Shown here: piece by piece, positions 16,465-26,062 of the stretch
Layout of the letters: the number at the start of each line of letters is the position of its first letter
Position numbering within the stretch: the first letter of the stretch is position 1
Position numbers and translations under genes: made by a program
Sequence record: PP554575
Length of the DNA stretch: 64,000 bases
Source: Escherichia phage PMBT16
Reading direction: 5' to 3' (one strand)
The notes under the pieces: generated by a model
The model's database searches: none
The model's input: only the letters and a program-made list of their open reading frames with translations
What the model was told of the DNA's origin: nothing

Positions 16465-16493
16465 TTGACAGCTCGGACAGTTCTTGTTATTCT
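16465..16493 (+). promoter_or_regulatory. sigma70-like promoter (TTGACA-N17-TATTCT)
   Basis: Hexamers with 17-bp spacer. Confidence 0.4.
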
Positions 16494-16547
16494 TATCCTC
16501 GCAAGGTGAACAACACCACACCAATTAACAGAGAGGATAAAAAAATC

Positions 16548-16745
16548 ATGAACGCCTACGGAATTAAAGTACGTCGCAACACTCGCCAGGTGGTCACCAA
16601 TCAAGTGATTTGCCGGGTGGATGTAACCATCAACAACGGGCAAGGCCTTTATAAATTTCGTCGCGGTCATAGCTATACCCTGCAACAGCTTAACCGTTGC
16701 TCCCTGACAAAAGGTCAGATCAACCACTGGTTTAATAAAAAATAA
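16548..16745 (+). CDS. hypothetical basic protein (65 aa)
   Basis: ATG with AGAGGATAA RBS downstream of promoter at 16465; track ORF 16461-16745 would begin inside the promoter. Confidence 0.5.
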   Translation: MNAYGIKVRRNTRQVVTNQVICRVDVTINNGQGLYKFRRGHSYTLQQLNRCSLTKGQINHWFNKK

Positions 16746-16748
16746 ATA

Positions 16749-16777
16749 TTGACATGTGGTCTGACACAAAATATACT
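16749..16777 (+). promoter_or_regulatory. sigma70-like promoter (TTGACA-N17-TATACT)
   Basis: Near-consensus hexamers, A-rich upstream. Confidence 0.55.
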
Positions 16778-16809
16778 GAAATCACAAAAGACACTAAGAG
16801 GATAAAATC

Positions 16810-17208
16810 ATGAAAACCACAACCTTTAATTTTGATAATGCCGACTTCTCTTTTTCTGATGTTAAAAGCTGCCGCCGTGATCGCGGATTCTACAAGGCCT
16901 ATAATCTGGTGGGCCTGGACGATGACAATAATTTGCACGAAGTAGCTGAGATCCGGTATTATGCCGCCGCCAGCGGTAACACTCATTACTGTGTATTTTG
17001 GATTCACGACAACAAGAACAATAAGTACGGTTATACTGGCGGCAAGGCGAGCGGTCACGGTTATGATAAAGCCAACGCTGCACTTGAAAGCGCATTAAGT
17101 GCCATGGGAATCACTGCCGACGGCTGGATCTATGAAGAAGAGTTTTTGGCGGCACTTGCTAACCACTTGGGCTATAAAAAGCACATTGTAACATGCGCCC
17201 ACGAATAA
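16810..17208 (+). CDS. hypothetical protein (132 aa)
   Basis: ORF track; AAGAGGA RBS. Confidence 0.65.
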   Translation: MKTTTFNFDNADFSFSDVKSCRRDRGFYKAYNLVGLDDDNNLHEVAEIRYYAAASGNTHYCVFWIHDNKNNKYGYTGGKASGHGYDKANAALESALSAMGITADGWIYEEEFLAALANHLGYKKHIVTCAHE

Positions 17209-17216
17209 AAAAATTA

Positions 17217-17273
17217 TTGACACGCTGCAAAATTCAAGTAAACTAGGCACAAAAGGCGGGAATGTTTCCCGCC
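17217..17273 (+). promoter_or_regulatory. sigma70-like promoter (TTGACA-N16-TAAACT) plus 5'-UTR stem-loop GGCGGGAA-TGT-TTCCCGCC
   Basis: Hexamers; perfect 8-bp stem at 17255-17273 at predicted transcript 5' end. Confidence 0.5.
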
Positions 17274-17292
17274 AACACAAAGGAAAAAGATC

Positions 17293-17688
17293 ATGAATAA
17301 GAACGTACGCCGCATCATGAACGAACTGGCAAACGATGAAAAAATTATTGATATGCATTTGGTCAACATTTGCCGCCGTTGTGTAACATATAACAACCGC
17401 GCCGCAAAAGCGCGTGAGATGAACGCAAAAGGCACCTTAAAGCCTTTTCAGGTGGTTGTAAAATCTATAACTAATGCAGCAGGCCAGGCGCATGACCACA
17501 ACAACGGGAGCACTAATATTGATCCGTCTTACGTAATGAAACGGATCCGGACTTGCAAGAATAAAGAGCAGGTGTATAACGTCATAGATTGGCTGGACTC
17601 CCTGGGCGATGTGGTTTACAACAGGTTTTCTGCAGCTATTGAAATTCAGTTAGACAGGTTGGACGGGAAAGTACTGAAAACTTACTGA
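17293..17688 (+). CDS. hypothetical protein (131 aa)
   Basis: ORF track; AAGGAAAAAGA RBS region. Confidence 0.65.
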   Translation: MNKNVRRIMNELANDEKIIDMHLVNICRRCVTYNNRAAKAREMNAKGTLKPFQVVVKSITNAAGQAHDHNNGSTNIDPSYVMKRIRTCKNKEQVYNVIDWLDSLGDVVYNRFSAAIEIQLDRLDGKVLKTY

Positions 17689-17689
17689 G

Positions 17690-17735
17690 TTTATTTTTAG
17701 ATGGCCTTGACTCCAGGGCCATCAATAAAGTAAAC
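17690..17735 (+). promoter_or_regulatory. conserved 46-nt intergenic element, copy 1 (ATGGCC-N10-GGCCAT palindrome embedding TTGACT; TAAACT 18 bp downstream)
   Basis: Near-identical copies at 18320-18366 and 22065-22110. Confidence 0.5.
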
Positions 17736-17768
17736 TAATCCCAGTTAAGCGAAAAAGGAGGCTTGAAG

Positions 17769-17888
17769 ATGAGCACTACACGCCAGCACACAAAGGTAAC
17801 TATTATCGTTTGCATCATTGGTTACATCCTGGCGCAAATGTTGATGGGTAGCGCCAATGATTTCGCAAAATTTTTCTTAAACTTTTAA
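17769..17888 (+). CDS. small hydrophobic peptide (39 aa)
   Basis: ATG 6 nt after AAGGAGG; hydrophobic core TIIVCIIGYILAQMLMG. Confidence 0.5.
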   Translation: MSTTRQHTKVTIIVCIIGYILAQMLMGSANDFAKFFLNF

Positions 17889-17944
17889 TTGACAAGCTAA
17901 CTTAAATCAGTATAATACTAAGCACATAAACGGGAAAACTTCCC
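17889..17944 (+). promoter_or_regulatory. sigma70-like promoter (TTGACA-N16-TATAAT) plus 5'-UTR stem-loop
   Basis: Consensus hexamers; CGGGAAAACTTCCC hairpin at 17931-17944. Confidence 0.55.
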
Positions 17945-17968
17945 AGAACACCAAAAGGAGAAAACATT

Positions 17969-24583: not shown

Positions 24584-24868
24584 ATGAAAAAGATGATCGC
24601 AGTAGTTGCCCTGGTTGTTGGACTTAATGCGCCTGTAATGGCTAAAGAGCTGGCAAAAGAGGTTAATCTAACGGATATCCATGCCGTCAATCAAATCGGG
24701 GTTACTTATCGCTTATGCCTTGCCGCTAAAACTTTTAATGACGGCACAACAGAGTACTACGGATTCGAGGGTATCCGGTGCGGTGAGCTTGCTCGCGACC
24801 TTAAGGAAGATCCAGACCTGGAAGATCTGCCCATCACCGTAAACGGTAAAGCTTACGTAAACCGTTAA
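24584..24868 (+). CDS. secreted/periplasmic protein with N-terminal signal peptide (94 aa)
   Basis: MKKMIAVVALVVGLNAPVMA signal-like N-terminus; AGAGG RBS. Confidence 0.6.
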   Translation: MKKMIAVVALVVGLNAPVMAKELAKEVNLTDIHAVNQIGVTYRLCLAAKTFNDGTTEYYGFEGIRCGELARDLKEDPDLEDLPITVNGKAYVNR

Positions 24869-24870
24869 CC

Positions 24871-25005
24871 ATGAGAAAGATAATCATCACCTTGGGGATT
24901 GTGGCTGGATCGCTGGCGCTCTTTCCCCTTATGGTTAGGTATGTGCTGATCAGTATTGTCCTGGTAGTCAGTGATCTATTGGGAACGGTTGGCACCTTGT
25001 TTTAA
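24871..25005 (+). CDS. small hydrophobic peptide (44 aa)
   Basis: ATG 3 nt after upstream stop; two hydrophobic stretches. Confidence 0.4.
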   Translation: MRKIIITLGIVAGSLALFPLMVRYVLISIVLVVSDLLGTVGTLF

Positions 25006-25017
25006 AGAGCGATAAAA

Positions 25018-25209
25018 ATGAATATCGAACAAGTTAGAAAGGTATTGGCGGTACTGCGTTATCATAATCATAGAAAGGTTATAGACGATCCTGATTATGT
25101 TGATTCAAGTCTGGAAGGGGATACACTGCAAGCCATAAGCAACATGCAAGAATTGCTCAAGCGCATGACAGAGAAAAACCGACCGGACTACATAGGCGAA
25201 AAAATATAA
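25018..25209 (+). CDS. hypothetical protein (63 aa)
   Basis: ORF track; followed by terminator. Confidence 0.55.
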   Translation: MNIEQVRKVLAVLRYHNHRKVIDDPDYVDSSLEGDTLQAISNMQELLKRMTEKNRPDYIGEKI

Positions 25210-25224
25210 TCCTTATAAACTACA

Positions 25225-25256
25225 AAACAGGGCTTGCAATGGTCCTGTTTTTTGTT
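25225..25256 (+). terminator. rho-independent terminator (AACAGG...CCTGTT + T-run)
   Basis: 6-bp stem, 12-nt loop, TTTTTTGTT. Confidence 0.55.
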
Positions 25257-25269
25257 ATACTTGTTTCAC

Positions 25270-25313
25270 GGCAGGCACCTGGCGACGGGTGGAGACAATC
25301 ACCGGGCCTGCCT
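25270..25313 (-). promoter_or_regulatory. inverted third copy of GGCAGGCCCGGTGATTGTCTCC motif within GGCAGGC/GCCTGCC stem
   Basis: Reverse complement of 25291-25312 is identical over 22 nt to 15951-15972. Confidence 0.5.
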
Positions 25314-25337
25314 GTCATATAAGAACTATAAAAACCG

Positions 25338-25391
25338 TTGACATCTGCCATAGGGTGGGGTAACATTTATCTTGAAGGGGCAAAAGTGCCC
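25338..25391 (+). promoter_or_regulatory. sigma70-like promoter (TTGACA-N17-TAACAT) plus 5'-UTR stem-loop
   Basis: Hexamers; GGGCAAAAGTGCCC hairpin. Confidence 0.5.
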
Positions 25392-25420
25392 ACACAATAA
25401 CCAGGAGAGAGGAAAACACT

Positions 25421-25693
25421 ATGTCAAGCTGGATTAATCAAGAAGTCGAATCACGTTTTAATGCTATTTGGGATCTCATCGAAAAAGAAGACGGCACATC
25501 AAGCCCCTACCTCAACAATTTGGAATTCCATTTTGTGGAAGCGATGAACGCAGAACATGATCACGAAGGTGGCGCGGATGAGTTCGCTAAAGGTTATGGC
25601 TTTAACAATGCCAACGAAATGATCGAGGCGGTCGTACTCCAGGCTGAGGAAGATTATCAATTAAAAACACTTGAATTCTGCCGCCATAAGTAA
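25421..25693 (+). CDS. hypothetical acidic protein (90 aa)
   Basis: ORF track; AGGAGAGAGG RBS. Confidence 0.65.
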   Translation: MSSWINQEVESRFNAIWDLIEKEDGTSSPYLNNLEFHFVEAMNAEHDHEGGADEFAKGYGFNNANEMIEAVVLQAEEDYQLKTLEFCRHK

Positions 25694-25754
25694 TAAGATA
25701 ATGACACGGGCCGAAAAGGTCCACTAATCAGAACCGCACAAAGAGGAAAACATC

Positions 25755-26018
25755 ATGAAACGTCTTGACCAGCTCAAACTAGTTCAATATATGGCTTATC
25801 GTGTTCTTGAAGTCCAGAAAGGTAGCAAAAAAGAAGTTTGCGAGAAAGCTTATAAGATCTTCACTCGCAAAAAAGATGACTGGATGCTACGCCAGACCAA
25901 AAAGGCTGACATCTTGGGGTACCTGGAAGAAGAGATCCGCCTTGAAGAACAAGAAGAGATCCGCCGTAGTGAGGCAGATTATCAGGCAGCTTGGGAAAAC
26001 TGGATGAGCAACAAATAA
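25755..26018 (+). CDS. hypothetical protein (87 aa)
   Basis: ORF track; AAGAGGA RBS; GGGCCGAAAAGGTCC hairpin in leader. Confidence 0.65.
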   Translation: MKRLDQLKLVQYMAYRVLEVQKGSKKEVCEKAYKIFTRKKDDWMLRQTKKADILGYLEEEIRLEEQEEIRRSEADYQAAWENWMSNK

Positions 26019-26037
26019 TACAACAAGATGCACGGTC

Positions 26038-26062
26038 AGGGGCTTAAAGCCCCTTTCTTTTT
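26038..26062 (+). terminator. rho-independent terminator (AGGGGC-TTAAA-GCCCCT + TTCTTTTT)
   Basis: 6-bp stem followed by T-run; last plus-strand gene before the gene-free region. Confidence 0.7.

Follow-up and report, generated by a model that had tools for sequence, protein, structure and literature searches.

Results

The small-gene array and its class-A cassettes

The window analysed here is a stretch of 64,000 nucleotides from Escherichia phage PMBT16 (sequence record PP554575), an rV5-like phage of the genus Vequintavirus, and the subject of this work is a 9.6-kb array of small genes in it, the modules of which are started by repeated cassettes of two types, termed here class A and class B (the D1 repeat). 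The array contains 28 open reading frames (ORFs) of 34-207 aa on the + strand, which have a Shine-Dalgarno (SD) sequence and span positions 16548-26018; an earlier sequence-only reading of the window, made without database searches, had given a count of about 28 small genes of this size, and this count was confirmed. By megablast, the array matches 250 phage records, of which the best is DrSchubert (Bas50, Vequintavirus), with 95.0% identity over 100% of the array, followed by slur16, FFH2, and other rV5 variants. In the closest relatives, the same stretch is annotated as 26-28 hypothetical proteins.

The class-A cassette, present in 11 copies, opens with an A/T-rich, UP-like tract and a sigma70 promoter; a GC-rich hairpin comes next, and then a leader that is A/C-rich and unstructured and runs up to an SD sequence. 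The array and these copies are as follows, with the -35 and -10 boxes separated by the spacer length in brackets, the distance from the -10 box to the hairpin, and, for some copies, the predicted fold of the 5' untranslated region (5'UTR).

16465..26062, + strand: array of 28 small ORFs, divided into blocks by six intrinsic terminators
17217..17292, + strand: class-A cassette P3, TTGACA(16)TAAACT, 10 nt, hairpin GGCGGGAAtgtTTCCCGCC (17255-17273), CA-rich leader, SD, ATG at 17293; predicted fold -14.6 kcal/mol, z-score -3.8
17889..17968, + strand: class-A cassette P5 (weak), TTGACA(16)TATAAT (12 of 12 matches), hairpin GGGAAaacTTCCC (17932-17944) 14-15 nt after the -10 box; predicted fold -5.8 kcal/mol, z-score -1.8
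19767..19851, + strand: class-A cassette P10, TTGACA(16)TATACT, 10 nt, hairpin GGCGGGAAaacTTCCCGCC (19805-19823); predicted fold z-score -5.2
20484..20565, + strand: class-A cassette P11, TTGCAA(16)TATATT, 9 nt, hairpin GGGGGCAAGacgTTTGCCCCC (20521-20541); predicted fold z-score -4.0
21779..21862, + strand: class-A cassette P15, TTGCAA(16)GATAAT, 10 nt, hairpin GGGGAgctaaTCCCC (21817-21831)
22942..23028, + strand: class-A cassette P18, TTGCAT(16)GATAAT, 12 nt, hairpin GGGGGCtatGCCTCC (22982-22996); weak, z-score of the whole UTR -0.2
23599..23678, + strand: class-A cassette P20, TTGACA(16)TAGTAT, 11 nt, hairpin GGGGCaacaaGCCCC (23638-23652)
23865..23940, + strand: class-A cassette P21, TTGACA(16)TAAAGT, hairpin GCGGGAAtacTTCCCGC (23905-23921); hot spot at which relatives have gained, lost, or replaced genes
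24082..24161, + strand: class-A cassette P22, TTGACA(16)TAGACT, 10 nt, hairpin with internal loop GGGCGGGGCAATAAGGCAACGCCC (24120-24143); predicted fold -16.8 kcal/mol, z-score -4.2
25338..25420, + strand: class-A cassette P27, TTGACA(17)TAACAT, 11 nt, hairpin GGGCAaaagTGCCC (25378-25391)
25671..25754, + strand: class-A cassette P28, TTGAAT(17)TAAGAT, 8 nt, hairpin GGGCCgaaaaGGTCC (25708-25722)

Promoters of good quality are concentrated on one strand. Eleven sites with at least 10 of 12 matches to TTGACA-N16-18-TATAAT were found on the + strand of the array, compared with 1.6 +/- 1.3 in dinucleotide shuffles, and none were found on its - strand. The sequence-only reading had assigned a near-consensus sigma70 promoter with an A-rich upstream tract to most of the genes; a promoter-like site lies directly upstream of 17 of the 28, which makes this wording generous, and the tract itself is evident, with 79% A+T in the 20 nt that precede the -35 boxes. 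Within the class-A cassettes, the promoters match 8-12 of the 12 consensus nucleotides, and the hairpin begins 8-14 nt past the -10 box, at 10-11 nt in 8 of the 11; the nucleotides between the -10 box and the stem vary in sequence while the spacing holds at 8-12 nt. When a strict rule was applied (at least 5 bp, at least 4 G-C pairs, and onset 8-12 nt after the -10 box), such a hairpin was found at 9 of the 17 gene-proximal promoters and at 0.8% of arbitrary positions in the window; 2000 shuffles gave 0.08 on average and never more than 2. The hairpin accompanies 6 of the 11 promoters with at least 10 of 12 matches in the array; of the 47 such promoters in the rest of the window, 1 has it (Fisher p = 7e-5). 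Class A and D1 together account for 15 copies in 9.6 kb, and next to no copies lie in the ~130 kb outside the array (the window and the remaining DrSchubert sequence). Because of these promoter, hairpin, and shuffle counts, the cassettes are regarded as real and far beyond chance. Two isolated class-A-like units were seen outside the array: one on the - strand near 34409 (TTGACA-17-TATCAT with AAGAGGGtttggttCCCTCTT) and one at 64255 of DrSchubert (TTGACT-17-TAAGAT with GGGGAGGcactCCTCCCC), which lies upstream of an N6-adenine methyltransferase gene.

The class-A stems comprise 5-9 bp, and the predicted 5'UTR folds, with energies from -5.8 to -16.8 kcal/mol and a z-score of -3.8 or lower in 4 of the 11, consist of a 5' hairpin followed by an open leader and SD. 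The leader between hairpin and ATG contains 54% A, 17% C, and 13% T, with G nearly confined to the SD, in agreement with the leader of the CACA...AAGGAG type that had been described before. In most cassettes, a pyrimidine is found at the seventh and a purine at the eighth nucleotide after the -10 box, and a start predicted at this pyrimidine-purine step leaves 1-5 unpaired nucleotides before the stem in 10 of the 11 cassettes and 8 in P5. The sequence-only reading had counted at least 8 GC-rich hairpins within a few nucleotides of the predicted transcript start; we count 11, likewise for predicted starts, and the hairpin it quoted (GGCGGGAAAACTTCCCGCC) is located exactly at 19805-19823. A MAFFT alignment of 30 cassettes left the 3' arms out of register, and an alignment anchored on the structure of hairpins selected for pairing would make a covariation test circular; position enrichment and syntenic orthologues were relied on instead. 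Two other kinds of RNA element were considered for class A and rejected: a lambda-type nut/boxB site as a general explanation, as the loop GAAAA occurs in two cassettes only and the other loops differ, and an RNase III site, for which stems of 5-9 bp are too short.

Class-A hairpins compared with terminators and operators

Intrinsic terminators, which the sequence-only reading had not listed, are present at six positions.

19280..19299, + strand: intrinsic terminator, GC stem and T-run
20956-20978, + strand: intrinsic terminator
21729-21748, + strand: intrinsic terminator
22858-22887, + strand: intrinsic terminator
25224-25251, + strand: intrinsic terminator
26038-26054, + strand: intrinsic terminator

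These provide a direct comparison for the possibility that the class-A hairpins are themselves attenuators or terminators of read-through transcription, insulating each gene so that only its own promoter drives it. Such a role is suggested by their intergenic position and GC content in an array dense in promoters, and by a precedent: the stem-loop of PeSL211/210, one of the promoter-early stem-loop (PeSL) cassettes known from T4-like phages, lowered the expression of downstream lacZ in the manner of the strong terminator rrnB T1 (PMC2839356). The sequence that follows the class-A stems is A/C-rich, with 0-3 T in 8 nt compared with 5-7 T after the six intrinsic terminators, and none of these hairpins was listed on the + strand by the terminator scan. 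Furthermore, a terminator does not require a constant distance of 10 nt to the -10 box, and one placed past the module's own start site would attenuate the transcript of that module. Insulation of this kind is thus considered improbable.

The class-A palindromes overlap positions +3 to +22 of strong promoters, which is a classic operator position, and five of them, when read on the - strand, are followed by T-rich sequence and were scored as terminator-like. They might then be DNA elements, operators to which a dimeric repressor of phage or host binds to turn off the early promoters, or else terminators of antisense transcription. The stems differ between cassettes (GGCGGGAA, GGGGGCAAG, GGGGA, GGGCC, GGGCA, and others), and thus offer no common recognition sequence for a repressor, and the changes among them tend to keep pairing of the RNA type, including G.U on the sense strand. 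As for antisense transcription, there is no promoter of at least 10 of 12 matches on the - strand of the array, which is already closed by a bidirectional terminator at 26038. Both forms of this explanation appear very improbable.

The D1 repeat

The second family of repeats, D1, which is 54 nt long and was absent from the sequence-only reading, is present in four copies, all directly 3' of a stop codon.

17686..17739, + strand: D1 copy a, covariance model score 80.5 bits
18317..18370, + strand: D1 copy b, 78.8 bits
18652..18705, + strand: D1 copy c, 70.2 bits, CTGGTA in place of the -35 box
22062..22115, + strand: D1 copy d, 80.8 bits

Its predicted fold, with an energy of -20 to -27 kcal/mol, has two stems of 10 bp each, a lower one of A/U pairs and an upper one (GATGGCCTTG/CAGGGCCATC), which are separated by a 2x3 internal loop and closed by a tetraloop. 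In three copies, a -35 box, TTGACT, lies within the upper stem and loop, and TAAACT follows 18 nt downstream, giving 9 of 12 matches to the promoter consensus. With the T-rich tract upstream of these boxes, and with the first two loop bases (AC of TTGAC) invariant in the three copies that carry the -35 box, D1 could be taken for a plain promoter with an UP element in which the pairing of the flanks is incidental. Copy c has lost the -35 box and keeps all 20 pairs through G.U and compensatory changes. When 22 distinct copies from 11 genomes were placed in an ungapped alignment, 98.2% of the cells were paired, compared with 34-55% in slid-register controls; four pairs of the lower stem covaried, with 18 cells changed on both sides, a value as high as which was seen in 0 of 500 shuffles, and the one-sided changes in the upper stem were all to G.U. 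The sense strand is stabler than the antisense strand in every copy, and the covariance model gives 70-81 bits on the + strand versus 33-44 bits on the - strand, a difference of about 35 bits. An incidental pairing around a plain promoter is therefore quite unlikely, and because copy c keeps the fold without a -35 box, D1 is conserved as a structure at the RNA level on which a promoter is superimposed in three copies. In read-through RNA, D1 would most likely serve as a processing site or a 3'-protective hairpin of the RNase III type. No further copies were found with the covariance model in the window, in the remaining DrSchubert sequence, or in the other lineages examined.

Conservation and spread of the cassettes

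The class-A cassettes are syntenic in ten Vequintavirus relatives, and several stems have changed in sequence and still pair. For instance, the P3 stem is GGCGGGAA/TTCCCGCC in most genomes versus GGCGGTTGA/TCAGCCGCC in MiataMamis, and the P11 stem occurs as GGGGGCAAG/TTTGCCCCC, GGGGCGAG/CTTGCCCC, and GGGGGTGAG/CTTGCCTCC, in which three pairs are G.T; three to four stem variants each were seen for P15 and P28. Outside of Vequintavirus, the cassettes are denser in Stephanstirmvirinae: tuntematon (Phapecoctavirus) has about 20 of them in 12 kb, and inny (Justusliebigvirus) has about 15. Their consensus in Stephanstirmvirinae is TTGACA-16-TAAGAT, gtatcaCAta, and a stem such as GGGCGGCAatggTGCCGCTC or GGCGGGAAGtggTTTCCCGCC. 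About 35 cassettes with other stems at the same offset were found in Phapecoctavirus and Justusliebigvirus, and cassettes are also found in Asteriusvirus. Gene families common to these lineages stand in a different order; two genes that are 0.4 kb apart in the array are 5.4 kb apart in inny. Exact-pattern scans of IMG/VR for two hairpin types matched few contigs, of ~97-153 kb. In phage A4 (Asteriusvirus, 355 kb; ON286972, 4249-12827), nearly every small gene around its homologue of the 207-aa ORF of the array (60% aa identity) has before it a cassette in which TTGCA-N17-TATAAT is followed after about 12 nt by a GC hairpin, for example GTGGGGAAtagTTCCCCAC, and a leader.

This spread bears on the possibility that the hairpin has no role of its own in expression, either because the inverted repeat is kept for recombination or because the constant spacing reflects common descent. 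Many cassettes are in fact mutually homologous, sharing common stems, a CACATAG box, and leader motifs, and indel junctions lie in cassettes, even within the stem or the loop. Recombination alone, however, needs no palindrome, orthologous stems have been altered on both arms and yet pair, and pairing and spacing persist over at least 20 distinct, strongly diverged stems in four phage genera. The divergence of stems and spacers at preserved pairing and distance speaks for selection, and we consider it unlikely that recombination or descent alone would account for the hairpins.

Gene shuffling at the cassettes

Junctions between conserved and exchanged segments were surveyed by blastn of the ten relatives against the window. 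The boundaries of the aligned blocks lie at 17736/18308, 19425/19435, 19669/19818, 22449/22815, 23857, and 23902-23934 and, further along the array, at 24104-24143, 24211, 24879/25005, 25211/25250, and 25720/25749; several of the breakpoints fall at the 3' end of P22. In several cases the event could be described. ECP26 does not contain the two genes between D1 copies a and b and has a single hybrid D1, with the left flank of a and the right flank of b. In nimi and A51.2, an additional cassette and gene lie between two copies of the -35 region AATAGTTTGACAACA (P21), and in TP14 and Mangalyan, an additional gene is joined within the P28 leader. MiataMamis (9070-9200 of the compared stretch) has a cassette with the 5' arm of the hairpin only (GGGCGGC|CTGGATT...), directly before its homologue of the 45-aa ORF, and this half-hairpin looks like a recombination joint inside the stem-loop. 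Between P21 and the 71-aa ORF (23.9-24.2 kb), the one to three small genes present differ in almost every relative, and multiple swaps lie between P21 and P22.

Class-A and D1 cassettes occupy about 13% of the array, and approximately 58% of the junction endpoints lie in them. The cassettes also constitute about 57% of the intergenic DNA, and the excess was not significant when compared with an intergenic-only null; because the enrichment is not clear against intergenic DNA alone, we report it only qualitatively. What is telling for shuffling is that repeat homology flanks the joints on either side. Since the cassettes are repeated, they also act as homology patches at which relatives have deleted, inserted, or exchanged modules of cassette and ORF.

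Encoded proteins

Each of the 28 ORFs, like the one just upstream of them, has a match among PHROG families to which no function is assigned. In the Pfam search, the 65-aa ORF at 19074..19271 (+ strand) was identified as a homologue of T7 gp1.1 (Phage_1_1, PF08200; E = 1.8e-11, 44.7 bits with a cut-off of 21), and no other ORF of the array scored above threshold, so that the products apart from the gp1.1 homologue are ORFans. A homologue of a T7 early protein fits an early region.

The sequence-only reading had pointed to three strongly acidic products, which are acidic as stated: the 116-aa ORF at 17969..18319 (+ strand) is the most acidic, with a pI of 4.05 and a net charge of -26, and those at 23029-23313 (94 aa) and 25421-25693 (90 aa) have net charges of -12 and -13. 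The 207-aa ORF at 19852..20475 (+ strand), with a net charge of -25, was not among them. The DNA-mimic or anti-defence role that had been proposed for the acidic proteins finds no echo in these results beyond the acidity itself, which alone is weak evidence for mimicry, and Pfam and PHROG give no function. AlphaFold models of the 116-aa protein (pLDDT 89.0, a helical-hairpin fold that includes a small beta element) and of the 207-aa protein (pLDDT 86.7, alpha/beta) were confident, and neither had a match in the PDB by Foldseek at E <= 0.001 (best hits at E = 1.3, to prefoldin, and at E = 0.7); a phmmer search of the four acidic ORFs against the PDB also gave no significant match (best E 0.19). 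Since DNA mimics are structurally diverse, the missing fold matches do not exclude mimicry. Homologues of the 207-aa ORF are present in Vequintavirus and in jumbo phages of ~350 kb (Asteriusvirus, RaK2, GAP32, and Erwinia phages), and the homologue in Klebsiella phage Muenster is annotated as a "YeeU-like antitoxin".

Other features and flanking regions

Three good promoters of the array have no hairpin, and, conversely, two units of hairpin and leader, which were not part of the sequence-only reading, have no recognisable promoter.

16465..16493, + strand: hairpin-free promoter P1, TTGACA-17-TATTCT
16749-16777, + strand: hairpin-free promoter P2
19453-19481, + strand: hairpin-free promoter P9, with a second TTGACA at 19430
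23321..23337, + strand: hairpin GGGGCCgaaaaGGCCCC and leader, lacking a recognisable promoter, ahead of the ORF at 23369
24538-24555, + strand: second promoterless unit of hairpin and leader

A remnant of the 3' half of D1 (CTATCAATAAATAAAC) precedes the unit at 23321-23337. Between 21363 and 21621, two candidate ORFs overlap, one for a hydrophilic protein of 81 aa (21363-21608), annotated at 73-81 aa in relatives, and one for a membrane-like protein of 41 aa (21496-21621). No Rfam family was found at E <= 0.1 in the array, and none reached the gathering score in the whole window.

In the DrSchubert annotation, genes for a Dcm methylase, a primase/helicase, and a DNA polymerase, together with tightly packed small genes, are located 5' of the array on the + strand and are separated from it by a non-coding stretch of ~1 kb. 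In the window, this stretch (15300-16285) contains a 47-nt direct repeat in three copies (15617, 15682, 15756), a near-consensus Fur box (GATAATGATAATCGTTCTC, 16053-16071) with two mismatches, for which 0.04 matches are expected by chance, and a weaker Fur-like site at ~15917-15937; a GC-rich structured segment follows each of the two Fur-like sites. The motif CCTGGCGGGGCC is repeated at about 16153, 16219, and 23316. A 28-nt inverted repeat (GGCAGGCCCGGTGATTGTCTCC; 15945-15972 and 25291-25318, 93% complementary) flanks most of the array, and its second copy, located between the terminator at 25224 and promoter P27, is kept in relatives.

On the 3' side of the array, a terminator comes first, then ~2.5 kb with few genes, and then small genes packed tightly into a convergent block on the - strand. 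The gene-poor region (26100-28900) corresponds to a "non-coding" box on the rV5 map and contains short direct and inverted repeats (26714-26731/26848-26865, 100% complementary; 26681/26955, 20 nt identical); no Rfam match was found in it. In the - strand block (29400-40000), small genes are tightly packed or translationally coupled, with almost no cassettes of promoter and hairpin. Having one promoter per gene is thus a specific feature of the array on the + strand.

Discussion

The results suggest that the array is a hyperplastic early-gene region composed of single-gene modules, each with a repeated cassette, in which the hairpins stabilize the 5' ends of the transcripts and the modules are shuffled as has been described for PeSLs; we consider this reading, taken as a whole, to be rather probable. 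The pyrimidine-purine step 7-8 nt past the -10 box would be where host RNA polymerase starts, and with this start, class-A transcripts would begin with about 3 free nucleotides followed by a stable hairpin. A hairpin in this position would hinder both RppH and the 5'-end-dependent entry of RNase E, resulting in a longer life of the mRNA, and the open A-rich leader would keep translation efficient. It is known that secondary structure at the 5' end stabilizes mRNA in E. coli and that RppH and RNase E need single-stranded 5' ends (PMC3997798). In this respect, the geometry of the class-A cassettes makes a stabilizing role at the 5' terminus plausible. Furthermore, rV5 encodes a homologue of Srd (PMC3606486), and T4 Srd enhances the action of RNase E on host mRNA, whereas the mRNA of the phage is stabilized (PMC4980113). 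If the homologue acted as Srd does in T4, this would provide a rationale for self-protection of phage mRNA, which is speculative.

Several observations weigh against this reading, in addition to the terminator activity of PeSL211/210 and the junction counts given above. Four class-A hairpins are weak, with predicted energies of -5.8 to -9 kcal/mol and z-scores of the whole UTR above -2, and the stem of P5 begins 14 nt after the -10 box. The strand asymmetry of wobble pairs in class A (14 G.T versus 5 A.C, p = 0.06) is only suggestive, as paralogues and two terminators are included in the count. The promoters P1, P2, and P9 are good ones and have no hairpin, and the half-hairpin of MiataMamis shows that the hairpin is dispensable before the homologue of the 45-aa ORF; because of these cases, the stem is not indispensable. 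Finally, "early" and "stabilizing" are terms that we infer: a search of the literature open to full-text searching found no transcript starts or half-lives for rV5-like phages and no start sites or transcriptomes for Vequintavirinae or Stephanstirmvirinae, and the 5' position of the hairpin is the one given by promoter prediction.

A still broader scenario can be proposed, of which we are doubtful in its full extent. In this scenario, the cassette, with its promoter and a hairpin at about +4, would be a plug-and-play module common to unrelated groups of large virulent coliphages (Vequintavirinae, Stephanstirmvirinae, Asteriusvirus, and, in the form of PeSLs, T4-like phages); accessory early genes would move between them by recombination during co-infection, the hairpins would mark the early transcripts as the phage's own and shield them from an attack of RNase E on host mRNA that the phage stimulates through its Srd homologue, and D1 would add a second layer of transcript processing, of the RNase III type.

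If the cassettes are what we propose, the PeSL idea would extend beyond T4-like phages, and accessory early genes would travel as cassettes ready for expression. The same design in at least three other groups of large coliphages could then represent a common currency for gene exchange in a shared host. The near-fixed placement of the stem just past the predicted start site calls the "terminator" view into question, and the alternative would be protection of the 5' end, possibly coupled to host mRNA decay induced by the phage. The cassettes would also mark non-essential, swappable genes, which may be of use in engineering rV5-like therapeutic phages and in hunting for genes of host takeover and anti-defence, and they may themselves serve as compact, strong natural expression units.

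Comparison with known systems

The acidic products of the array resemble known DNA mimics such as Ocr and ArdA in being small, strongly acidic, and encoded in a putative early region; they differ in that no sequence similarity (four ORFs) or fold similarity (two models) to any solved structure was found. D1 resembles the RNase III processing sites of the T7 early region, which were reportedly described by Dunn and Studier. Like those sites, D1 would be an intercistronic hairpin of about 20 bp, or about two helical turns, with an internal loop, and it is repeated between putative early genes; the array also encodes the homologue of T7 gp1.1. In contrast, the putative site D1 has no sequence similarity to the T7 sites, and three of its four copies contain a -35 box, which the T7 sites are not known to have.

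For class A, the mechanistic model is provided by the 5' stem-loops of ompA and papA, as the work of Emory, Bouvet, and Belasco (1992) is relayed in PMC3997798. In that account, a stable hairpin lies a few nucleotides from the 5' end and the SD is accessible, as is predicted for the class-A transcripts, and such a hairpin is known to act by keeping out RppH and the RNase E 5' sensor. However, ompA and papA are, in the same account, single cellular cases, whereas the array has what would be a serial device, carried by cassettes before about 11 phage genes, and the 5' ends are predicted ones.

The closest counterpart of the cassettes is the PeSL, a motif of ~80-100 bp found in the T4-like phages RB49/phi1, PST/T4, and nt-1/KVP40, in which a stop codon in an A/T-rich tract is followed by a near-consensus sigma70 promoter, a G/C stem-loop, and the SD and ATG (Arbiol et al. 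2010, PMC2839356; Comeau et al. 2014, PMC4122927). PeSLs are concentrated before ORFans in hyperplastic regions, where they mediate modular shuffling, and they have been divided into five sub-classes by the position of the stem-loop, including one over the -35 box and one downstream of the -10 box (PMC2839356, PMC4122927). The array is similar in each of these respects: a sigma70 promoter with an A/T-rich upstream tract (79% A+T) and a stable G/C stem-loop are contained in the same intergenic motif of ~100 bp, many copies are clustered in a hyperplastic region, mostly before ORFans, and indels and replacements among relatives join at the cassettes, in no significant excess over the intergenic-only null. 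Among the sub-classes, the one over the -35 box corresponds to D1 and the one downstream of the -10 box to class A. The terminator feature of PeSLs, on the other hand, has no equivalent at the sequence level, where there is no U-tract and where the sites on the + strand were not called by the terminator scan; because the class-A stems have no U-tract, a terminator role of the kind proposed for PeSLs fits poorly. A further trait of PeSLs is that mini-circles, which become encapsidated, arise when flanking cassettes recombine.

A full-text literature search found no published account of PeSLs in rV5-like, phi92-like, or 121Q-like phages. The promoter sequences listed in the rV5 genome paper are each cut off 7 nt past the -10 box, and hairpins find no mention there. 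PeSLs are known from T4-like phages, whereas the cassettes described in this work belong to Vequintavirinae and also to Stephanstirmvirinae and Asteriusvirus. In the PeSLs of RB49/phi1, moreover, the stem-loop lies mostly between the -35 box and the -10 box or over the latter, whereas it is here almost always ~10 nt after the -10 box and would thus be inside the module's own transcript. Judged by the order of their elements, the cassettes are therefore of the PeSL kind that has already been described, and what is new are the lineages that carry them and a distinctive bias of the stem toward a position that is predicted to be transcribed.

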